Below are positions 164-38,425 of a stretch of DNA of 64,000 nucleotides, one piece after another. Location of the stretch: contig JAILEN010000214.1 in NCBI GenBank assembly GCA_024687655.1, forward strand, positions 14,523 through 78,522, in the 5' to 3' direction. Numbering within the stretch: position 1 is the stretch's first letter; each line of letters begins with the position of its first letter. A program made the position numbers and the translations under genes. This stretch comes from Lachnospiraceae bacterium. GTDB taxonomy: Bacteria; Bacillota; Clostridia; Lachnospirales; Lachnospiraceae. The notes under the pieces are model-generated. The model worked only from the letters and a program-made list of their open reading frames with translations, made no database searches and was not told the origin of the DNA.

Positions 164-198
164 TATTATAATAATATTTTGGTACATGTTTAATATTT

Positions 199-212
199 AG
201 TCAAAGGCGACT
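199..212 (+). promoter_or_regulatory. Candidate antiterminator hairpin: AGTC [AAAGGC] GACT, hexaloop with A1 and G4
   Basis: The 4-bp stem pairs 199-202 with 209-212, with loop 203-208. The 3' strand and last loop base are also the 5' arm of terminator 208-242, so the two structures exclude each other. The decamer TCAAAGGCGA (201-210) recurs at 7293-7302. Confidence 0.45.
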
Positions 213-242
213 TACAGTTTTTATGCTGTAAGTCGTTTTTTT
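208..242 (+). terminator. Rho-independent terminator between the GS-III gene and amtB-glnK
   Basis: Perfect 10-bp stem CGACTTACAG (208-217) / CTGTAAGTCG (226-235), an 8-nt loop, then seven T (236-242). Confidence 0.85.
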
Positions 243-2190: not shown

Positions 2191-2204
2191 GTTGTCAATG
2201 AATG

Positions 2205-2245
2205 GTAGGAGGTTTCCCTCCTACTCATGCTTGTTTAGGAGGAGG
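2205..2245 (+). promoter_or_regulatory. Decoy-SD / anti-SD hairpin upstream of the real SD of the next gene
   Basis: GTAGGAGG (2205-2212), loop TTTC, CCTCCTAC (2217-2224) form a perfect 8-bp hairpin. The CCTCCTA strand is also complementary to the genuine SD TAGGAGGAGG (2236-2245), which sits 6 nt before ATG 2252. Confidence 0.35.
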
Positions 2246-2251
2246 TCAGAC

Positions 2252-4831
2252 ATGGCAGCATTTGAACGTGTGCTTTCGGGGATACCGGATATGGATGTGG
2301 CACTTGATAATATCAGGCTTGGGGACAATGTGGTATGGAGGGTTTCGGATCTGTCCGAATTCAGGCTTTTCATGGAGCCCTATGTGGACCAGGCGAAAAA
2401 GGATGGCCGGAACATCATTTATTTTCGCTTTGCCAGTCATGAGCCATTAGTGGAGGACTGTCCGGAGGTAAAGACCATACATATTCCGCTTTCCCACCGT
2501 TTTGAGACCTTTACGGTGGAGATACACAACGCCATAGAAAAGGAGGGCTATGACGCCTTCTACGTTTTTGACTGCCTTTCCGAGCTTCAGACCGCCTGGG
2601 CCACGGATCTTATGATGGGTAACTTCTTCAGGGTTACCTGTCCCTTTTTGTTTATATTGGATACAGTGGCATTTTTCCCCATAATCCGCGGAAAACATTC
2701 CTTCCACGCCATTAACAAGATCCTCAACACCACACAGCTGTTTTTAGATGTGTACTCGGATGAAAAGAACACCTACGTCCGGGCTGAAAAGGTGTGGAAC
2801 AGGAACTCCGAGACCATGTTTTTGCCTCATATCTATAAAAAGGAGACGGGCAGCTTTAAGCCCATATTGGACGGGGTCCAGTCCAGCCGTTTTTATAACG
2901 TGCTAAATCATTTTCAGCGTCCGGGAGAGGAGCAGTACATCGATTCCTGGGACAGGTTTTTCGATCTGGCAAAGCTGAAATGCGATAACGGCATGGACAT
3001 CTCGGAGGAATGTAATACCATGTGCGACGTGATGATGAGCCGGGATCCGAAGATGAGGGAAATGGTAAAAAAGCATTTTACCCCCAAGGATTATTTCGAT
3101 GTCAGGGGTCATATGATAGGCACGGGGCTCATAGGCGGAAAGGCCTGCGGCATGCTCTTGTCACGCGCCATAATCCGCAACACTTCCCCTGAGATAAATG
3201 AGGTTTTGGAGCCCCATGATTCATTTTTCATGGGTTCAGACATATATTACACTTATATCGTGGACAATGAGTTCTGGGACCTGCGTGTCAGACAGAGGAC
3301 TGATGAGGAGTATTTTTCTCTGGCAGAGGAATTTGCGGACCGGCTGAAGGAAGGTACATTTTCGGAGGATATAAAAAACCAGCTCCGGCATATTTTGGAA
3401 TACTACGGTCAGGACCCCTTCATAGTCCGCTCCAGCAGTATATTAGAGGATGGCTTCGGCAATGCCTTTGCCGGCAAATATGAATCGGTTTTCTGTGCTA
3501 ACAGGGGCACCCTGGAAGAGCGGCTTTCAGAGTTTGAAGATGCCATAAGGACTGTTTATGCCAGTACCATGAGTATGTCCGCCCTGGATTACAGAAAGCG
3601 CAGGGGGCTGGATAAAAGGGATGAGCAGATGGCACTTTTGATACAGCGGGTGTCGGGATCCTATTACGGGCCTTATTATATGCCCTGTGCCGCAGGGGTG
3701 GGTTATTCCTACAGTCCCTACAAGTTTTTACAGGGTATAGACCAAAATGCGGGAATGCTGAGGCTTGTCATGGGTCTGGGGACATCCGCCGTGGACCGCA
3801 CCCAGGGCTCTTATCCCAGACTGGTATCTTTGGATATGCCCGAGGCCACTTCATCCGTCACCTGTGCGGACAAGCACCGTTTTTCACAGCGCAGGGTGGA
3901 GGTCATGGATGTGAGCGAGCATTGCTTAAAGAGGCTGGAACAGCAGGTGATAGAGGATAAGCTGCCACCTTATCTTGCCAATATTCTTTTGGAACATGAC
4001 TATGATGCGGAAAGCAGGTTCAGGGAGCGGGGCATCAACCGTTTTGTGAGATTTATCTCCTGTCTGGGACTGGTTAAAAAGAGAGATATCATGGAGCGGA
4101 TGAGGACGCTGATGCATCTGATCCAGGAGGAATACGGGCAGCCGGTGGACATCGAGTTTACCATGAACCTGTCCGATACCGGGGAATACTCCATAAACCT
4201 TCTGCAGTGCAGGCCCCTTCAGGTGTTCAAGGATACGGGGGGCGTACATGTACCCACGGACATTCCAAAGGAAAAGGTCCTGCTTGAAAGCAAGGGGGCA
4301 TCCATGGGACTGTCCCGGGATGAAAAGATAGATCTGATCGTATACGTGGATCCTGTGGGTTATTATAATATGCCCTATGTTAAAAAGGCTGAGATTGCAT
4401 CGGTGATAGGCAAGATCAACTGGAAATACCGGGAGAGCGGCAGGCATATGATGCTTCTGGTCCCCGGCCGGGTGGGTACATCCTCTCCGGAACTGGGAGT
4501 GCCTACGGCCTTTGCGGATATCAGTGAATTCGAGGTGGTATGCGAGATGGAGGAGAGGGATGCAGGTTATAATCCCGAGCTTTCCTATGGAAGCCATATC
4601 TTTCAGGATCTTGTTGAATCTGATATACTTTATACGGCAGTTTTCAAAAGTGAAAAGACATTGAGTTTTGCACCCGAAAGCATGGCTGCTTATCCTGATA
4701 TATCCGCGGACTTTGCAGATACACAGGATGTCACCCGGATAGTCAGGGTCTATGACATGTCAGATTCGGGTTGCAGGCTGTATTATGACCTGGAGGAAAA
4801 CCACCTTTTGGTTGGGATGAAACAGGGTTGA
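2252..4831 (+). CDS. PEP/pyruvate-binding (PPDK_N-like) domain protein with an uncharacterised N-terminal domain
   Basis: Start chosen at MAAFERV behind SD AGGAGGAGG. The central motif IVRSSSILEDGFGNAFAGKYESV is typical of the nucleotide-binding domain of PEP synthase/PPDK. No phosphohistidine swivel or PEP-utilising C-terminal domain was recognised. Confidence 0.65.
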   Translation: MAAFERVLSGIPDMDVALDNIRLGDNVVWRVSDLSEFRLFMEPYVDQAKKDGRNIIYFRFASHEPLVEDCPEVKTIHIPLSHRFETFTVEIHNAIEKEGYDAFYVFDCLSELQTAWATDLMMGNFFRVTCPFLFILDTVAFFPIIRGKHSFHAINKILNTTQLFLDVYSDEKNTYVRAEKVWNRNSETMFLPHIYKKETGSFKPILDGVQSSRFYNVLNHFQRPGEEQYIDSWDRFFDLAKLKCDNGMDISEECNTMCDVMMSRDPKMREMVKKHFTPKDYFDVRGHMIGTGLIGGKACGMLLSRAIIRNTSPEINEVLEPHDSFFMGSDIYYTYIVDNEFWDLRVRQRTDEEYFSLAEEFADRLKEGTFSEDIKNQLRHILEYYGQDPFIVRSSSILEDGFGNAFAGKYESVFCANRGTLEERLSEFEDAIRTVYASTMSMSALDYRKRRGLDKRDEQMALLIQRVSGSYYGPYYMPCAAGVGYSYSPYKFLQGIDQNAGMLRLVMGLGTSAVDRTQGSYPRLVSLDMPEATSSVTCADKHRFSQRRVEVMDVSEHCLKRLEQQVIEDKLPPYLANILLEHDYDAESRFRERGINRFVRFISCLGLVKKRDIMERMRTLMHLIQEEYGQPVDIEFTMNLSDTGEYSINLLQCRPLQVFKDTGGVHVPTDIPKEKVLLESKGASMGLSRDEKIDLIVYVDPVGYYNMPYVKKAEIASVIGKINWKYRESGRHMMLLVPGRVGTSSPELGVPTAFADISEFEVVCEMEERDAGYNPELSYGSHIFQDLVESDILYTAVFKSEKTLSFAPESMAAYPDISADFADTQDVTRIVRVYDMSDSGCRLYYDLEENHLLVGMKQG

Positions 4832-6267: not shown

Positions 6268-7239
6268 ATGAAAATTGGGATCTTGGGTTGTGGAAGGATA
6301 GCAGAGCTTTTGGCGGGCACTTTTAATGCCATGCCGGAACTGGATTGCCATGCAGTGGCTTCCAGGAGTCTTAAAAAGGCAGAGGAGTTTGCAAGAAACA
6401 ATGGTTTTAAAAAGGGATACGGCAGCTACGAGGAGCTGGTGAGCGACCCGGAGGTGGAGCTTATCTATGTGGCCACGCCCCACTCGAGACATTTTGAGGA
6501 TATGAAGCTTTGCATCGAGCATAAAAAGCCGGTGGTATGTGAAAAGTCATTTACCTTGAATGCCGGGGAGGCAGAGGAGATAATCAGACTTTCCGAAGAA
6601 AACGGCGTGTATGTGGCTGAAGCGATCTGGACCAGATATATGCCGTCCAGAAAGCTCATCGATGATATGATCGCATCGGGGATCATCGGCGAGGCCAAGA
6701 TGCTTACGGCAAATCTTTCATATAAGATAGATGATAAGGAGAGGATCCTGGATCCAAAGCTTGCAGGAGGCGCGCTTTTGGATGTGGGAGTCTATGGAAT
6801 CAATTTTGCGTTCATGCATTTTGGCAACGATTACAGGAGTATAGATTCATCCGTTATCATGACTGACACCGGGGTTGACGGCTCCGAGTCCATCACCATA
6901 CATTATAATGATGGCAGGATGGCGGTTCTGACCCACGGCGTATATGCCAGATCTGACCGCAAGGGGATAATATACGGAGAAAAGGGCTATATCATTGTGG
7001 AAAACATCAATAATCCTCAGTTGATATGTGCATATGATGACGAGGATAATCTGATAAAAAAGGTGGATGTGCCCGCCCAGATCAGCGGATATGAATATGA
7101 ATTCCTGGAGGCAATAAAGAGGATCGGAGAGGGTGCGTGCGAGAGCTTATCCATGCCGCACAGCCAGACACTCTTTGTGATGAGAGCCATGGATGAGATA
7201 CGTTCATCCTGGGGCCTTAAGTATCCGAAGGAGGCCTGA
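6268..7239 (+). CDS. Gfo/Idh/MocA family NAD(P)-dependent oxidoreductase
   Basis: N-terminal Rossmann MKIGILGCGRIA and the EKP-type motif VVCEKSF. 323 aa with SD GGGAGG. Confidence 0.8.
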   Translation: MKIGILGCGRIAELLAGTFNAMPELDCHAVASRSLKKAEEFARNNGFKKGYGSYEELVSDPEVELIYVATPHSRHFEDMKLCIEHKKPVVCEKSFTLNAGEAEEIIRLSEENGVYVAEAIWTRYMPSRKLIDDMIASGIIGEAKMLTANLSYKIDDKERILDPKLAGGALLDVGVYGINFAFMHFGNDYRSIDSSVIMTDTGVDGSESITIHYNDGRMAVLTHGVYARSDRKGIIYGEKGYIIVENINNPQLICAYDDEDNLIKKVDVPAQISGYEYEFLEAIKRIGEGACESLSMPHSQTLFVMRAMDEIRSSWGLKYPKEA

Positions 7240-7251
7240 GCAATTTTTCCT

Positions 7252-7278
7252 TGACACTTTAAAAAATTATGATATTAT
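7252..7278 (+). promoter_or_regulatory. Putative sigma-A promoter for pyrG (TTGACA ... TGaTATTAT)
   Basis: -35 TTGACA at 7252-7257 and extended -10 TG-a-TATTAT at 7270-7278. The spacer is only about 15 nt, so confidence is moderate. Confidence 0.4.
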
Positions 7279-7288
7279 TCTGTGTAGA

Positions 7289-7306
7289 GAAATCAAAGGC
7301 GATTTC
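7289..7306 (+). promoter_or_regulatory. Candidate antiterminator hairpin: GAAATC [AAAGGC] GATTTC
   Basis: Perfect 6-bp stem with hexaloop AAAGGC (7295-7300; A1, G4). Bases 7297-7306 are also the 5' arm of terminator 7297-7337. The decamer TCAAAGGCGA is the same as at 201-210. Confidence 0.5.
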
Positions 7307-7337
7307 CGGATTTATTCTGGAAGTCGCCTCTTTTTTA
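7297..7337 (+). terminator. Leader (attenuator) terminator upstream of pyrG
   Basis: AGGCGATTTCCGGA (7297-7310) pairs with TCTGGAAGTCGCCT (7316-7329), about 14 bp including two G-U pairs, with loop TTTAT. C plus six T (7330-7336) follow. It lies 40 nt upstream of the pyrG ATG. Confidence 0.85.
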
Positions 7338-12000: not shown

Positions 12001-13576
12001 GCCTCATCACGACATCTATTCCATCGAGGATCTGGCGGAGCTAATTTATGATCTTAAAAATGCCAATAAAAACGCACGTATATCCGTAAAGCTGGTTTCT
12101 GAAGCCGGCGTGGGAACTGTTGCAAGCGGTGTGGCCAAGGCAGGCGCACAGGTGATCCTCATCTCCGGTTATGACGGAGGTACGGGAGCTGCTCCGGTCA
12201 CCTCCATACATAATGCGGGACTGCCCTGGGAGCTGGGACTGGCAGAGACGCATCAGACCCTTATCAGAAACGGACTGAGAAACCGTGTGATAATAGAAAC
12301 GGACGGAAAGCTGTTATCAGGCCGTGACGTGGCCATAGCAGCCATCCTGGGAGCCGAGGAGTTTGGCTTTGCCACTGGCCCCCTTGTGACCATGGGCTGC
12401 GTGATGATGAGAGTATGTAACAAGGACACCTGTCCCGTAGGAGTAGCCACCCAGAATCCCGAGCTTCGCAAGCGGTTTGCAGGAAAACCGGAGTACGTGG
12501 TAAACTTCATGCGTTTTGTAGCAGAGGAGCTGCGTGAGTATATGGCCATGCTGGGTGTACGCACAGTGGACGAGCTGGTGGGCAGGACAGACCTGATCCG
12601 TGTCAGGGAAAATGCTTCCCTGGATCTGTCCCAGGTGATCTGCGGCGGCTTTGAGGGCGAGATCAGAGATGAAAGCGCCACGATCTACGACAAGAAGGAT
12701 GTGTATGATTTCAAGCTGGCCAGGACCTTGGATGAAAGAACACTGATTAAGAAGCTGGATCCTGCCAAGAACGGTGCGGCCGGCGGCAGTGTATCCTGCG
12801 ATGTGACCAATAACGATAGAGCTTTCGGAACCCTTTTGGGTGCAGAGATAACCAGAAGCTGCGGAGACGACCTTCCGGAGGATACCTATAAAGTATCCAG
12901 CCGGGGTGCAGGCGGCCAGTCCTTTGGAGCATTCATCCCCAAGGGCCTTACCATAAGCCTCATCGGTGACAGTAACGACTATTTCGGCAAGGGCTTATCC
13001 GGCGGAAAGCTTATCATTGCTCCCGCAAAGGAAGCTGCCTACGAGGCCGACAAAAATATCATAATCGGAAACGTGGCGCTCTACGGAGCCACCTCGGGCA
13101 CAGCCTATATCAGCGGTGTGGCCGGAGAGAGATTTGCGGTCAGAAACTCCGGAGCTACAGCAGTGGTAGAGGGTTGCGGAGATCATGGCTGCGAGTACAT
13201 GACAGGAGGCCGGGTGGCCATCCTGGGTGAAGTGGGCAAGAACTTTGCCGCAGGTATGAGCGGTGGAATCGCCTATGTTTTGGATCCCGACGATTCCCTG
13301 TACAAGAGGCTTAACAAGGCCATGGTTTCTCTTGAGCCAGTAACCGACAAATACGATGTTCAGGAGCTTAAGACCCTGATAGAAGGGCATGTGGCCGCCA
13401 CAGGTTCCAAAAAGGGTGCCGAGATCCTTAAAGGTTTTGCGGATTACCTGAAGCACTTTAAAAAGGTCATCCCTCATGATTACAAGAAGATGATAGAGAT
13501 GGTGGCACAGATGGAAAAGAAGGGTCTCTCACATGAGCAGGCCGAGATCGAAGCCTTTGAGCTTCTGACAAAGTGA
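9047..13576 (+). CDS. gltB: Glutamate synthase large subunit
   Basis: 1509 aa. It has the N-terminal Ntn amidotransferase start ...[12 protein letters not shown]/Fe-S central domains, and a C-terminal GXGXG beta-helix ([10 protein letters not shown]...). It overlaps pyrG by 8 nt. Confidence 0.95.
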
Positions 13577-13585
13577 GGTACCGGT

Positions 13586-15103
13586 ATGGGAAAAGCAACA
13601 GGATTTTTAGAATATGAAAGAGTGGAATCAAAGGCAGTGCCGCCTCTGGAGAGGATAAACGGCTGGAATGAATTCCACATCATGCTAAGCCAAAAGGAAC
13701 AGACAAAGCAGGGCGCCAGATGCATGGACTGTGGCGTGCCCTTCTGCCAGTACGGTGAAGCCATAAGCGGCATGACCAGCGGCTGTCCCCTTCACAATCT
13801 GATCCCCGAGTGGAATGATATGGTATGCAGGGGAAATTACGAACAGGCCTATCCCAGGCTTAAAAGGACCAGCAACTTTCCTGAGTTTACCTGTCGTGTA
13901 TGTCCGGCACTTTGTGAAAAGGCCTGCACCTGCGGCCTGTATGACGAGCCAGTATCCACACGGGAAAACGAGAGAGCCATAATAGAGTATGCATATGAAA
14001 ACGGTCTGGCAAAGGCAGAGCCTCCGAAGACCAGGACAAAAAAGAAGGTGGCGGTGATAGGCTCCGGCCCCGCCGGCCTGGCCGTGGCTGACGATCTGAA
14101 CCGTCGCGGTCATTTGGTTACCGTATATGAGAGAAATGACAGGGTGGGAGGTCTTTTGCGATACGGCATCCCCAACATGAAGCTGGAAAAGTGGGTCATT
14201 GACCGGAAGCTTGAGATAATGGCACAGGAGGGCATAGAGTTTGTGACGAACACCGATATTGGTAAGGATATCAAGGCTTCGGACCTGTTAAAGGACTATG
14301 ATGCCGTGGTGGTGGCAACCGGTACTCCAAACCCCAGGAACATCGAGGCTCCCGGAAGGGATGCGCAGGGGATCTATTTTGCAGTGGATTATCTGACAGA
14401 CGCCACCAGGCAGCTTTATGAGGAAAAGCTGGTGGAGGATAAATTCCATGTGGATGGGGACAAGCCTGCTTCACAGAAGCTTTCCGCCAAAGATAAGGAT
14501 GTGATCGTAATTGGCGGAGGCGATACAGGAAATGACTGCGTGGGAACGGCCATCCGTCAGGGCGCAAGGAGCGTGACCCAGCTGGAGATGATGCCACAGC
14601 CTCCTGTTAGCAGACGTGACAGTAATCCATGGCCGCAGTGGCCGCTGGTTTTAAAAACGGACTACGGTCAGGAGGAAGCCATTGCCGTGTTCGGGGCAGA
14701 TCCCCGGATCTATCAGACCACGGTAAAAGAGTTTAAAAAGGATAAAAAAGGAAATGTGAAGTCCGCAGTTTTGGTATCCCTTGAGTCAAAGACAGACGAG
14801 GCTACGGGACGGCGGATGATGGTGCCGGTGGAGGGCAGCGAGCGTGAGGTAAAGGCATCTTTGGTCCTCATAGCCGCAGGTTTTCTGGGGTCCGATAAAA
14901 AGCTGGCGGATGCTTTTGGCGTGACCCTGGACGGACGCACCAATTTTGAGGGAATAAAAGGAACACATAAGACGTCGGGAGATAAGATATTCACTGCAGG
15001 GGATGCCCACACGGGACAGTCACTGGTGGTCAAGGCCATTGCGGACGGCAAAGCCTGCGCCCGGGAAATTGATGAGTTTTTGATGGGATATTCCAATCTG
15101 TAA
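13586..15103 (+). CDS. gltD: Glutamate synthase small subunit (NAD(P)H-dependent)
   Basis: Cys clusters (CMDCGVPFC, CPLHN), the dinucleotide fold VAVIGSGPAGLA, and 505 aa. It starts 9 nt after gltB. Confidence 0.9.
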   Translation: MGKATGFLEYERVESKAVPPLERINGWNEFHIMLSQKEQTKQGARCMDCGVPFCQYGEAISGMTSGCPLHNLIPEWNDMVCRGNYEQAYPRLKRTSNFPEFTCRVCPALCEKACTCGLYDEPVSTRENERAIIEYAYENGLAKAEPPKTRTKKKVAVIGSGPAGLAVADDLNRRGHLVTVYERNDRVGGLLRYGIPNMKLEKWVIDRKLEIMAQEGIEFVTNTDIGKDIKASDLLKDYDAVVVATGTPNPRNIEAPGRDAQGIYFAVDYLTDATRQLYEEKLVEDKFHVDGDKPASQKLSAKDKDVIVIGGGDTGNDCVGTAIRQGARSVTQLEMMPQPPVSRRDSNPWPQWPLVLKTDYGQEEAIAVFGADPRIYQTTVKEFKKDKKGNVKSAVLVSLESKTDEATGRRMMVPVEGSEREVKASLVLIAAGFLGSDKKLADAFGVTLDGRTNFEGIKGTHKTSGDKIFTAGDAHTGQSLVVKAIADGKACAREIDEFLMGYSNL

Positions 15104-15152: not shown

Positions 15153-16403
15153 ATGACTGACATAACCATAGATGAAGTAATGGAGTTCATTGAGGAAAAC
15201 GATGTGAAGTTCATCCGCCTTGCATTCTGTGATTACTACGGAGATCAGAAGAATGTGTCGGTTATGCCTGATGAGCTTAAAAAGGCTGCCGAGCGAGGGG
15301 AGCCCTTTGACTCCTTCAGGATAGCGGGCTTTGATGATCACGACAATCAGGATCTGTTTTTGCGCCCTGATCTGTCCACCATGTGTATTTTGCCCTGGAG
15401 ACCCCAGGAGGGCAGGGTGCTCAGGTTTTATTGTGACGTCATCAAGTCAGATGGCTCCTGCTATGAGCTGGATCCCAGAAAGCTTTTAAAGGAGGCGGTA
15501 AATGACTGCAAGCGTCTGGGCTTCAAGCCCCGTATCGGTCTCAACTCCGAGTTTTACCTCTTCCGTACTGATGACGAAGATAATCCCACGGATGTGCCCT
15601 GGGACAACGGTTCCTGCTATGATATCGCCCCTAAGGATCGTGGAGAAAACATCCGCCGTGATATCTGCCTTACCATGGAGGAGATGGGGATCCGTCCTGA
15701 GAAATCCTACCATGAAAACGGCCCGGGCCAGAATGAGATCGATTTTGAAGAGGATTCCGCACTGCATACCGCGGATAACTTTATCACTTATAAAAATGTA
15801 GTGGGTGCTGTATCTGCCAGAAACGGTATCTATGCATCCTTTGCACCGAAGCCCCTGCCGGATGAGAGCGGTAACGGACTCCATATCAAGATGTCCCTTT
15901 TTGACGGGGGAGTCAACATCATCGACAAGGATCCGGATACGGCGGAAAGCTTTACCGCAGGCGTATTGAACCGTATGCGTGATATAACCGTTTTTTTGAA
16001 CACCCAGTCATCTTCCTATGACCGTTTCGGTCAGGGGGAGGCGCCGAAGCATATCACATGGTCCATGCAAAACCGTTCCAGGCTTTTACGTATCCCGGTG
16101 GTAAACGGCAAGAGGGCGGGCTTTATCCTGCGTTCCCCCGACTCCGGCATCAATCCGTATCTGGCCTTTACCGTGCTTATACGTGCCGGGCTGGCCGGGA
16201 TCAAAAACAAAGAGAAGCTTCCCTCACCGGTGGACAAGTCATGGCGCCGCCTGACAGAGGATGAAAAGGCCTCATATCAGAAGCTTCCCATGTCATTGGA
16301 GGAGGCCATTGACTGTGCCAAAAACAGTGAGTTTTTAAACAACGACGACTCCCTTCGTGACATAGTGGAGCGTTTTCTTTCGGTGCTGTCATCCCGTTCT
16401 TAG
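15153..16403 (+). CDS. glnA: Glutamine synthetase, type I-like (short, 416 aa)
   Basis: An N-terminal beta-grasp (VKFIRLAFCDYYG) and catalytic-domain motifs YHENGPGQNEIDF, FAPKPL..GNGLHIKMSLF and LRIP. Confidence 0.8.
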   Translation: MTDITIDEVMEFIEENDVKFIRLAFCDYYGDQKNVSVMPDELKKAAERGEPFDSFRIAGFDDHDNQDLFLRPDLSTMCILPWRPQEGRVLRFYCDVIKSDGSCYELDPRKLLKEAVNDCKRLGFKPRIGLNSEFYLFRTDDEDNPTDVPWDNGSCYDIAPKDRGENIRRDICLTMEEMGIRPEKSYHENGPGQNEIDFEEDSALHTADNFITYKNVVGAVSARNGIYASFAPKPLPDESGNGLHIKMSLFDGGVNIIDKDPDTAESFTAGVLNRMRDITVFLNTQSSSYDRFGQGEAPKHITWSMQNRSRLLRIPVVNGKRAGFILRSPDSGINPYLAFTVLIRAGLAGIKNKEKLPSPVDKSWRRLTEDEKASYQKLPMSLEEAIDCAKNSEFLNNDDSLRDIVERFLSVLSSRS

Positions 16404-16430: not shown

Positions 16431-16480
16431 GCTCAGTGACAGCCTACAACTCCTGTCACTCTGAGCGAAGCGAAGAGTCT
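16431..16480 (+). repeat. Dispersed hairpin repeat, copy 3, preceded by a partial inverted copy
   Basis: The unit is TGTCACTCTGAGCGAAGCGAAGAGTCT (16454-16480), with internal stem ACTCT/AGAGT. GCTCAGTGACAG (16431-16442) pairs with CTGTCACTCTGAGC (16453-16466). Confidence 0.55.
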
Positions 16481-16534
16481 TTTACCTAACGTACAATGAT
16501 TTTGATCAATGGTGATCGTATAAAGGAGACATAG

Positions 16535-17101
16535 ATGGAGCAGGTGCTTTTAGTCTGCGATTCTGAAAAAGCCACGGAATTCTGCCGGGACGTCCTGAAA
16601 AAGCAGGGCTACCCGGATGTTTTCGTGTGCAAAAACGGACCGGAAGCCAAGCGCCGCCTTTTGGAGTTCGATTACGATTTCACGCTGATAAACGCCCCCC
16701 TTCGCATGGAATCTTCCGAGGGAGTGGCCATAGACATAGCGGAAAAAAACGTAAGCCAGGTCATCCTTCTGGTAAATGGCGAGCATTTTGACGAGGTTCA
16801 CGCCCATACCAGGGATTATGGAGTTATCACCGTAACGAAACCCATACATGCAAGAGACATGGCAATGGCCATAGATTTTTCGCATATTGCACAAAGTCGC
16901 ATCAAAATGTTGATGCAGGAGAACAAAAAGTTACAAAAAAAGATGAATGAGTTAAAATTTATTAACCATGCGAAGATTCTTTTGGTACAATATGAAGAGC
17001 TGACGGAGGAAGAGGCCCACAAGAAGATAGAGCGGCAGGCCATGGATGAGCGCAAGAGCCGTGTGTTGGTTTCAAAGGAGATAATAGACAAATATGAATA
17101 A
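16535..17101 (+). CDS. ANTAR-domain RNA-binding antiterminator with a pseudo-receiver domain
   Basis: The C-terminus KFINHAKILLVQYEELTEEEAHKKIERQAMDERKSRVLVSKEII matches the ANTAR three-helix pattern. The N-terminus is a CheY-like fold, but the position aligned to the phospho-Asp reads LINAPL (Asn). Confidence 0.8.
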   Translation: MEQVLLVCDSEKATEFCRDVLKKQGYPDVFVCKNGPEAKRRLLEFDYDFTLINAPLRMESSEGVAIDIAEKNVSQVILLVNGEHFDEVHAHTRDYGVITVTKPIHARDMAMAIDFSHIAQSRIKMLMQENKKLQKKMNELKFINHAKILLVQYEELTEEEAHKKIERQAMDERKSRVLVSKEIIDKYE

Positions 17102-30795: not shown

Positions 30796-31095
30796 ATGAC
30801 AGTTACCAAGGAAAAAAACGGCGATGTACTCAATGTAGACATATCGGGAGAACTGGACATAAAGACGGCGCCCTAGCTGAAGGCGGGGCTGGAGGGACAG
30901 CTTGATGATGTGATGGAGGTTTATTTCGACCTGAAGGATTGCCCCTATACCTCATCTGCGGGACTCAGGGTTATTCTGGGTGCGTATCAGGTCCTGGATG
31001 AAAAGGATGGACGCATGGTGCTTAAAAATGTAAATGATGTTTTTATGGATATCCTTTCGGAAACCGGCTTTACCGATTTTTTGGAGATTGAGTAA
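30796..31095 (+). pseudogene. STAS-domain anti-sigma-factor antagonist interrupted by an in-frame TAG
   Basis: ATG 30796 sits behind SD GAAGGGAG. The frame reads MTVTKEKNGDVLNVDISGELDIKTAP-TAG(30874-30876)-LKAGLEGQLDD...DLKDCPYTSSAGLRVIL...FLEIE*. It is a single 100-codon frame, and the conserved phospho-Ser motif is retained. Confidence 0.8.
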
Positions 31096-37932: not shown

Positions 37933-37945
37933 TTTGGGGGATTAA

Positions 37946-37972
37946 TGTCATCCTGAGCGCAGCGAAGGATCT
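37946..37972 (+). repeat. Dispersed hairpin repeat, copy 4
   Basis: TGTCATCCTGAGCGCAGCGAAGGATCT with internal stem ATCCT/AGGAT. It lies immediately after terminator 37899-37932. Confidence 0.6.
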
Positions 37973-38029
37973 TTTTCTCTCGGTAATCTCAAAGTGGAAA
38001 ACTAAAAATTTCAAAGGAGGTACAGGTCT

Positions 38030-38425
38030 ATGAAGGGATTTGTAAAGAAGCTGTTAAGCTGCACCCTTGCGGCAGCATTGATTTGTTCCCTTGCACCGAA
38101 TGTGGGGGGGTAATGCAGGTAAGGTAGAAGCGGCAGATACGCAGTATCAGTGGGTTAAGGTTGGAAGTACCAGCTACACCACAGGTAGTACGTATACCGA
38201 GACCAAAGACAGCTATGATAGTTATCGGTCTTATAGTGCCGAATATGGAAACATTGTTACCGGTGCAAACGGCAAGCAAGACCATGAGCAAAGGAAATCT
38301 CAAAGTTGGTGACCGGATAAAGCACGACCTATTATGTCCAGGTAAGAGCCTTCGCTAAGGACTCCAGTGGTGAAAAGGTCTACGGCCCCTGGTCTGCCAA
38401 GAAGAAGGTTAAGATAAAGAAGTGA
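38030..38425 (+). pseudogene. Remnant of a small secreted (Fn3-like tail) protein, at least 3 frame changes
   Basis: SD AAAGGAGG plus MKGFVKKLLSCTLAAALICSLAPNVGG stops at a G7 run (38104-38110). It continues in other frames as NAGKVEAADTQYQWVKVGSTSY..., then ...GNLKVGDRIK..., then ...YYVQVRAFAKDSSGEKVYGPWSAKKKVKIKK* (stop 38423-38425). Confidence 0.6.

Follow-up and report, generated by a model that had tools for sequence, protein, structure and literature searches.

A putative ANTAR-type transcription attenuator with a single hexaloop between the GS-III and amtB-glnK genes of a Lachnospiraceae bacterium

Introduction

The DNA analyzed here raises the question of how transcription enters an ammonium transporter gene that is separated by an intrinsic terminator, and by no convincing promoter, from the glutamine synthetase gene in front of it. 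The stretch (hereafter the window) comprises 64,000 nucleotides of a Lachnospiraceae bacterium (contig JAILEN010000214.1, positions 14,523 to 78,522), and the element in question occupies positions 199-242, between a type III glutamine synthetase (GS-III) gene and the gene amtB-glnK. A preceding sequence-only reading had proposed that a hairpin with a six-nucleotide loop (hexaloop) competes here with the terminator and is bound by an ANTAR antiterminator protein. This interpretation is supported by our comparisons: the element is probably a protein-dependent transcription attenuator of the ANTAR type that would operate with a single hexaloop. The site is one of two in the window and a member of a regulon-wide class.

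Two mutually exclusive structures downstream of the GS-III gene

The 3′ end of the GS-III gene lies at positions 2-163 of the + strand. Its frame-2 translation terminates with WPYPTYGQILYSVK, followed by the stop codon TAA (161-163), and is 62% identical to the C-terminus of the 697-amino-acid GS-III of Butyrivibrio fibrisolvens, in which Pfam recognizes the GSIII_N, Gln-synt_C and Gln-synt_C-ter domains. Downstream, on the same strand, we found (i) a putative antiterminator hairpin at 199-212, with the stem AGTC/GACT (199-202/209-212), the hexaloop AAAGGC (203-208; A at position 1, G at position 4) and a closing C-G pair, and (ii) an intrinsic (Rho-independent) terminator at 208-242, composed of the arms CGACTTACAG (208-217) and CTGTAAGTCG (226-235), a loop (218-225) and seven T residues (236-242). 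The terminator stem is a perfect 10-bp helix with five G-C pairs, and its 5′ arm takes in C208 of the hexaloop together with the 3′ strand of the hairpin, so that positions 208-212 are common to both structures.

Both structures had been noticed in the sequence-only reading, and inspection of the sequence and RNA folding confirmed them. Although a simple pattern scan of the window did not list the terminator, it is the structure into which the RNA of positions 190-245 folds (−21.2 kcal/mol, z = −7.5; none of 200 shuffled sequences was equally stable). When the 199-212 hairpin was forced, the best structure reached only −9.0 kcal/mol and the remnant helix stopped 6 nt short of the U-tract; the hairpin by itself contributes −2.3 kcal/mol. 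The two structures are therefore mutually exclusive, as had been claimed, and termination is the default state.

The hairpin shows three features by which Ramesh et al. (2012) define ANTAR substrates, namely an A1/G4 hexaloop, a conserved stem of at least 3 bp and overlap of the second hairpin (P2) with a terminator. The loop had been recognized earlier as carrying the ANTAR signature, and it is identical to those of the nasF and eutA P2 hairpins. The published ANTAR seed alignment contains GGAU[AAAGGC]GUCC for nasF P2 of Klebsiella oxytoca and UUAAGC[AAAGGC]GCUUAA for eutA P2 of Enterococcus faecalis, and among the remaining loops (AAUGGC, AACGGC, AAAGAC and similar ones) a C-G closing pair prevails.

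The amtB-glnK gene itself (373-2145, + strand) encodes an ammonium transporter (Pfam Ammonium_transp, 1e-118) fused to a P-II protein (2e-23). A promoter scan found no promoter-like site on the + strand between the terminator and this gene (243-372), in agreement with what had been noted before, and no sigma-54 −24/−12 element was seen by eye in 150-372. A TATAAT sequence occurs at 167-172, upstream of the hairpin, and an extra transcription start upstream of the switch may thus exist in the window. Whatever the origin of the transcripts, the 199-242 switch would gate amtB-glnK.

No Rfam family was detected at gathering score in the window, and positions 1-600 gave only chance-level matches at E values up to 10. 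A TnrA/GlnR-like box (TGTTTAATATTTAGTCA, 188-204), picked out by eye, was rejected, as three of its eight specified positions are wrong and it is not conserved.

A second copy of the module upstream of pyrG

Pfam analysis identified the first 21 kb of the window as a nitrogen-assimilation cluster with the gene order amtB-glnK, PPDK_N-domain protein, purF-like, GFO oxidoreductase, pyrG, gltB, gltD, glnA, ANTAR gene, carA, carB. A second copy of the module heads the pyrG-gltB-gltD-glnA-ANTAR-carAB operon. It consists, on the + strand, of a sigma-70-type promoter at 7251-7278 (TTGACA at 7251-7256, a 16-nt spacer and TGaTATTAT at 7270-7278), a hairpin at 7289-7306 (GAAATC[AAAGGC]GATTTC) and a terminator at 7297-7336 (14 pairs including two G-U pairs at 7297-7329, then CTTTTTT). 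The hairpin supplies the 5′ arm of this terminator with its loop and 3′ strand, and the free fold (−23.9 kcal/mol) is again far more stable than that with the hairpin forced (−8.4 kcal/mol). The hairpin begins 10 nt past the −10 box, which places it at the 5′ end of the transcript.

The window contains exactly two copies of the 10-mer TCAAAGGCGA (201-210 and 7293-7302); by simple arithmetic approx. 0.12 would be expected in 128 kb. Both form hexaloop hairpins that overlap terminators in the nitrogen cluster. A hairpin identical to that at 7289-7306 was also found in two other loci (L083 and L088), the first of which, an orthologous locus, has the same promoter-hairpin layout. Attenuation of pyrG in Bacillus depends on CTP sensing; the switch preceding pyrG in the window is different.

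A family of hexaloop modules in Lachnospiraceae

In order to place the two sites in a wider context, we used a sample of one genome per species that comprised 80 loci with AmtB-GlnK orthologues (68-81% identity), nearly all from Lachnospiraceae of rumen and gut, plus Treponema zioleckii. A scripted scan of these loci for terminators that start in the loop or 3′ stem of an A..G.. hexaloop hairpin returned 357 sites, the commonest loops being AAAGGC (59), AAGGGC (15), AATGGC (8) and AACGGC (7). The products of the genes located 3′ of the strong sites were AmtB-GlnK (56), GS-III (approx. 15), PurF-like (8), GltB (5), PyrG (5), GlnA (5), CarA (3) and GltD (2). The genes behind the switches are mostly those of glutamine or ammonium users (PurF-like amidotransferase, PyrG, GOGAT, GlnA, CarAB, AsnB and GS-III). 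The consensus of the Lachnospiraceae hairpins, AAGC[AAAGGC]GCTT, is that of the eutA P2 hairpin.

When 87 distinct sites with CAANGGCG and a terminator were aligned by the loop only, the stem covariation amounted to 0.487, versus 0.203 in column shuffles (none of 500 reached the observed value) and at most 0.177 when the pairing partners were slid. Pair 7-16 was represented by G-C (47 sites), A-U (22), G-U (10) and U-A (3), and pair 6-17 by A-U (43), G-C (23), C-G (5), G-U (5), U-A (4) and U-G (2). A single-hairpin covariance model (R2), built from 78 sites of other genomes with the window excluded, ranked positions 195-216 first in the window (16.1 bits, E approx. 0.03) and 7287-7308 fourth (13.8 bits). 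The element 199-242 fits the class defined here, in which a C[AANGGC]G hairpin, its stem covarying, overlaps a terminator and is followed by a gene for nitrogen assimilation, and the 199-212 hairpin is not a chance structure.

A lack of conservation in orthologous leaders had been named as an outcome that would refute the sequence-only reading. The opposite was found: the module is present at 16 of 20 orthologous GS-III to amtB-glnK junctions, and its stems covary (AGTC/GACT, ACGC/GCGT, CCAC/GTGG, GCAC/GTGT, GAAC/GTTC, AGAC/GTCT, TCGC/GCGG, TGC/GCA and ACAC/GTGT). Alignment of nine junctions yielded a consensus terminator in which 9 of 14 pairs show compensatory changes, and a hairpin that was 97% paired, with a covariation of 0.875 versus 0.222 (0/500).

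The junction of B. fibrisolvens 16/4 bears on the origin of the transcripts. There the GS-III stop codon (TAG 6742-6744) is also the start of the hairpin TTACGC[AATGGG]GCGTGA, so that no promoter could fit in between. Such promoter-less junctions support the earlier proposal that amtB-glnK is expressed by read-through from the GS-III gene; that this read-through would respond to nitrogen is predicted by analogy with NitR, GnfR and NasR. The cluster of this cultured organism is arranged as gltB, gltD, [ACGAC AAAGGC GTCGT + terminator], asnB, GS-III, [hairpin + terminator], amtB-glnK, [GAGTAC AAAGGC GTATTT + terminator], glnA, ANTAR, with three internal switches in one operon.

Other arrangements of the module were also encountered. 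At the GS-III to amtB-glnK junctions of loci L002, L004, L012, L016 and L030 the hairpin CCAC[AAAGGC]GTGG is apical in the terminator, whose 5′ arm holds the 5′ strand of the hairpin rather than the 3′ strand (e.g. CAGTCATCCCAC-AAAGGC-GTGG...GTGGGGTGGCTG-T8 in L012). Many amtB-glnK leaders (e.g. L017, L019, L023, L024 and L026) contain tandem hexaloop-plus-terminator modules, 45-120 nt apart, before one gene, the second often with the loop AATGGC, AATGGG or AATGAG. The tandem modules could provide serial attenuation, or the first hairpin might help to load the protein for the second. In the rumen spirochaete T. zioleckii kT3 (L066; positions 7890, 10031 and 13222-13761) an amtB-glnK fusion, two hexaloop-plus-terminator modules (AACGAG and AAAGAG) and asnB-glnA-ANTAR occur together, which suggests that the whole regulatory unit has moved between phyla.

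The candidate regulator

The candidate effector is a NitR-like protein of 188 amino acids with a receiver-like and an ANTAR domain, encoded at 16535-17101 on the + strand. The ANTAR assignment, made earlier from the translation, was confirmed by Pfam (44.8 bits; cut-off 27.3). The gene lies directly 3′ of glnA (15153-16403) and 16 kb downstream of the 199-242 element, and the operon to which it belongs has the second motif copy at its head; the genome thus encodes an ANTAR protein, and does so within a putatively regulated operon.

The receiver-like part scored 24.4 for Response_reg, under the cut-off of 30.2. At the position of the phospho-acceptor Asp of Rv1626 and EutV the protein has Asn53 (motif INAPL), which is invariant in 12 homologues, and no kinase gene adjoins the ANTAR gene in the window. 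Judging from these residues, the protein appears to be a pseudo-receiver of the AmiR-like kind. The loss of the acceptor Asp suggests that its activity is probably controlled by a partner protein or a ligand, and not by phosphorylation. We speculate that such a partner or ligand carries the nitrogen signal, glutamine synthetase or the GlnK domain being candidates.

Residues K149, E160, Y164, M172 and R175, through which EutV contacts the hexaloop, correspond to K147, E158, H162, M170 and R173 of the window protein. All five are invariant in the 12 homologues, and a His at the position of Y164 is also found in AmiR.

The motif and the gene are linked beyond the window. A glnA-ANTAR pair with the motif before the operon was found in the window and in loci L033, L044, L056, L066 (Treponema), L081 and L083. 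A further, ANTAR-centred sample consisted of 80 metagenomic loci with homologues of 34-97% identity, 53 of them with at least 1.6 kb of upstream DNA. In 16 of these 53 loci the strict motif stands 1308-1385 nt before the ANTAR start, which is the position of the glnA leader; the glnA leaders of ANTAR loci that were read had the order promoter, single hairpin, terminator, glnA.

Alternative explanations

Several observations weigh against the assignment of the element to a single-hexaloop ANTAR system. Antitermination by EutV needs both hairpins and a tight linker, the first hairpin (P1) having been proposed to recruit the protein ahead of polymerase (PMC3369931, PMC8934654), and all characterized ANTAR targets are described as dual hairpins (PMC12591593). 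A second A1/G4 hexaloop, separated from P2 by a linker of 5-12 nt in the eut leaders and likewise part of the definition of Ramesh et al. (2012), was not found here; a descriptor scan revealed no dual hairpin with a linker of up to 20 nt at either site of the window. A covariance scan with published dual-hexaloop substrates, which had been suggested as a check, was negative: the model (R1), built from seven published eut seeds (nasF of K. oxytoca was excluded because MAFFT misaligned its P1), gave a noise-level match at the site (12.2 bits, E approx. 0.9) with P1 deleted, and did not report the pyrG leader at all in its scan of the window. The 4-bp hairpin (−2.3 kcal/mol) must compete with a terminator of −21 kcal/mol. 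With regard to the protein, Leu140 and Glu166 align with Arg142 and Arg168 of EutV, two residues that are thus not conserved. The strict motif was present anywhere upstream in only 25 of the 53 ANTAR loci, and an ANTAR gene was found within 8 kb at only 4 of the 80 amtB loci, since the flanks extended over only 8 kb. Finally, a weak promoter-like site at 136-164 (9/12 matches) means that GS-III read-through need not be the sole source of transcripts.

Some of these points would also fit a real attenuator whose hairpin is stabilized by another RNA-binding protein, or which acts as a protein-independent kinetic switch governed, for example, by polymerase speed or nucleoside triphosphate levels. 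The canonical second hairpin is missing, binding of an ANTAR protein at this site is predicted from the sequence, the ANTAR gene lies near a minority of the amtB loci (largely a consequence of the 8-kb flanks), and the cluster encodes uncharacterized proteins, such as the 879-amino-acid PPDK_N-domain protein (2192-4831). However, experimentally bound ANTAR hairpins have exactly this loop (A1, G4, AANGGC), this C-G closing pair and this overlap with a terminator, the ANTAR gene lies inside motif-led operons wherever this could be examined, and the protein family shows no variation at the key residues for hexaloop contact, while nothing points to another factor. We therefore regard this explanation as unlikely.

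The element might otherwise be an ordinary intrinsic terminator of the GS-III gene, in which the 4-bp hairpin is fortuitous and AAAGG is an A-tract that pairs with the U-tract. The minimum-free-energy fold indeed lengthens the terminator by pairing A203-G207 with U236-U240, the hairpin is weak, and hairpins with a single A..G.. hexaloop abound: counting stems of at least 3 bp, there are 240 on the + strand of the window. In a stem-blind test, AANGGC sites with and without an overlapping terminator were scored for a flanking stem of at least 3 bp. Such a stem was present at 85 of 168 sites with a terminator versus 129 of 2598 without, an approx. 10-fold enrichment that runs counter to plain termination, although 55 of the 168 terminator-linked sites lacked a flanking stem and resemble simple A-tract terminators. 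Plain termination gives no reason why the 5′ flank of the loop should covary with the 5′ arm of the terminator, nor why the same 10-mer module should occupy a 5′ leader with no upstream gene to terminate, and family members stand 5-14 nt after promoters. The covariation has already largely refuted this explanation, which we consider very improbable.

Equally little probability attaches to a canonical dual-hexaloop substrate with TACGG[ACAGAT]CC-t-GTA (134-150) as P1, a candidate already described as weak in the sequence-only reading. Its loop, ACAGAT, does show A1 and G4, and the flanks can be drawn as a 5-bp stem with a bulge, but just two contiguous pairs flank the loop, the linker measures 48 nt versus 5-12 nt in the eut leaders (where changes in linker length abolish EutV antitermination), and the segment encodes the conserved GS-III sequence PTYGQIL, whose orthologues lose the pairing. 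We therefore dropped this candidate. In the family, an upstream A..G.. hexaloop was seen in 8 of 94 strong members, against a background of 7.1%. In 58 of these 94 members the hairpin follows the end of a sigma-70 promoter at a median distance of 11 nt, so that no P1 would fit into the transcribed part, and model R1 deletes P1 at the site itself. As a family feature the dual-hexaloop arrangement is already refuted: the canonical second hairpin is absent, and the family, as far as can be read from its sequences, works with a single hexaloop hairpin.

The idea that a dimeric nitrogen repressor uses the inverted repeat as its operator on the DNA, suggested by the many copies located at approx. 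+5 to +25 from predicted transcription starts (a typical operator position), deserves almost no credence, because the arms vary freely yet remain complementary while the asymmetric spacer AANGGC is conserved (the opposite of what an operator shows), other copies lie at internal junctions between genes, remote from promoters, and every copy overlaps a same-strand terminator.

Proposed mechanism

The attenuator would act as follows. Polymerase arriving from the GS-III gene, and possibly from a weak promoter near its stop codon, would transcribe AGTC[AAAGGC]GACT first. By default the more stable terminator 208-242 would form and transcription would stop, the element serving as the GS-III terminator and amtB-glnK being off. 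Under nitrogen limitation, which is the expected activating condition by analogy with NitR, GnfR and NasR, the active NitR-like ANTAR protein would bind the hexaloop and hold the weak hairpin closed. The bound hairpin would sequester GGCGACT, the base of the terminator 5′ arm, and the remnant of 5-6 bp would end 6 nt from the U-tract, permitting read-through. A single hexaloop hairpin would suffice, with no upstream recruitment hairpin, and the receiver-like domain, lacking the acceptor Asp, would probably answer to its partner or ligand. The same switch at 7289-7336 would gate pyrG-gltBD-glnA-ANTAR-carAB, so that the regulator would promote its own synthesis by positive feedback. Our data show the two structures, the fact that they exclude each other, their conservation and covariation, the association with nitrogen genes and the linkage to the ANTAR gene; that the protein binds, in which direction nitrogen acts and what the signal is are what we infer.

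We lean somewhat towards a more general proposition, in which NitR-like pseudo-receiver ANTAR proteins of Lachnospiraceae (with relatives in Treponema through gene transfer) antiterminate via one hexaloop placed a few nucleotides from the transcript 5′ end or from a stop codon, without a recruitment hairpin, and receive their signal through a partner or ligand of the Asn53 pseudo-receiver, not from a kinase. If true, this use of a single hexaloop would contradict the rule, derived from EutV, that two close hexaloops are needed to beat polymerase, and it would define a distinct mechanistic subclass extending over a whole regulon (GS-III, AmtB-GlnK, GlnA, GOGAT, PyrG, CarAB, PurF-like and AsnB). 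It has been reported that the ANTAR dimer contacts one hexaloop at a time, and the minimal motif was redefined as a single hexaloop, while the function of single hexaloops, especially under the time constraint of transcription, was left open (Walshe et al. 2022, PMC8934654). The family described here offers dozens of natural test cases for that question.

Relation to known ANTAR systems

ANTAR antitermination of nitrogen genes is already established by GnfR of Geobacter, NasR and NitR, and Ramesh et al. (2012) predicted it upstream of ammonium transporter and P-II genes; regulators of this kind were thus known before. The novelty lies in a large class of single-hexaloop sites, backed by covariation and overlapping terminators, in Lachnospiraceae that are abundant in gut and rumen, with its single-hexaloop architecture, pseudo-receiver regulator and regulon-wide use. 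Published dual-hairpin searches apparently missed this class, their Lachnospiraceae matches being located at hypothetical genes, and no earlier description of the motif was found in the literature searched, which did not cover most subscription journals. The signature C-AANGGC-G, together with a covarying stem and a terminator, can serve to predict the nitrogen regulon of this ecologically important bacterial family.

In Geobacter sulfurreducens the ANTAR regulator GnfR binds RNA with CAGGCAANGGCGCC; in the nifH, nifEN and glnK-amtB leaders this sequence lies upstream of the terminator and overlaps it (Ueki & Lovley 2010, PMC2995071). The GnfK/GnfR system shares with the window the glnK-amtB target, the overlap with the terminator and the core GCAANGGCGC, which is the consensus of the Lachnospiraceae family. 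It differs in that GnfK phosphorylates GnfR, a genuine response regulator, and the promoters are RpoN-dependent, whereas here the receiver has Asn53 and no acceptor Asp, no kinase gene is adjacent, the promoters are of the sigma-70 type and modules also stand between genes inside operons.

By gene order and description, a close parallel is NitR of Clostridium saccharobutylicum and Clostridium acetobutylicum (Stutz 2007, as cited in later accounts), whose gene lies directly 3′ of glnA as in the window. In C. saccharobutylicum NitR is presented in these sources as an ANTAR antiterminator that induces the GS/GOGAT genes under nitrogen limitation (PMC6316151; also PMC4676874). As far as these accounts go, the NitR system also involves an antisense RNA, in contrast to the one described here, and no NitR RNA target motif was found in the literature searched, in which the primary NitR paper was not covered.

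AmiR of Pseudomonas aeruginosa is likewise a pseudo-receiver without a phosphorylation site (PMC2995071) and, in our alignment, shares with the window protein a His at the position of EutV Tyr164. Unlike the system proposed here, AmiR is sequestered by the amide sensor AmiC and acts on an amidase operon whose leader is described as a dual hairpin; no AmiC-like gene adjoins the ANTAR gene of the window. The EutV/EutW system of E. faecalis has in common with the element the A1/G4 hexaloop, the C-G closing pair and a weak P2 whose 3′ side forms the 5′ arm of the terminator, but it uses two hairpins 5-12 nt apart where we find one, is activated by phosphorylation and serves ethanolamine utilization. 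The NasR-nasF system of K. oxytoca shares the same P2 hexaloop, the competition with a terminator and a role in nitrogen assimilation, and differs in its NIT sensor domain, dual-hairpin leader and nitrate assimilation targets.

Other features of the window

AmtB and GlnK form a single polypeptide of 590 amino acids. The fusion is kept in all 80 orthologous loci and has at least 598 relatives in a species-representative genome collection; the nearest proteins (81% identity) come from metagenome-assembled genomes of rumen Lachnospiraceae.

The 5′ untranslated region of amtB-glnK contains a palindromic insertion (248-351), made up of two inverted copies of a repeat of approx. 32 nt, TGTCATCCTGAGCGnAGCGAAGGATCTTTT (inverted repeat 248-258/341-351; fold −47.1 kcal/mol). 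Further copies of the repeat are present at 16449-16481, between glnA and the ANTAR gene, and at 37942-37975, upstream of an open reading frame (ORF) near 38030. The palindrome has no Rfam match and is absent from orthologous junctions, and the repeat had one exact match among 84 fetched loci (L036). This dispersed repeat looks like a REP or MITE-like element, and the insertion lies outside the conserved switch. A riboswitch at 243-372, considered on account of the strong fold, was rejected for the same reasons, the fold being that of the two inverted repeat copies and the orthologous junctions lacking the insertion.

The region that follows amtB-glnK (2146-2260) contains a terminator-like hairpin at 2163-2184, followed by CTTTTGG, and a second hairpin at 2204-2225; a weak hexaloop, TTT[ACAGGG]GGA, overlaps the first of these and is not convincing. 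The gene for the PPDK_N-domain protein, listed with a TTG start at 2192, probably begins at ATG 2253, which is preceded by the ribosome-binding site GGAGGAGG.

Further downstream, a 99-codon ORF at 30796-31095 resembles, by eye, a STAS-type anti-sigma-factor antagonist (MTVTKEKNGDVLNVDISGELDIKTAP*LKAGLEGQL...). It is interrupted by an in-frame TAG at codon 27 (30874-30876), and could represent a pseudogene, a sequencing error or a case of read-through.

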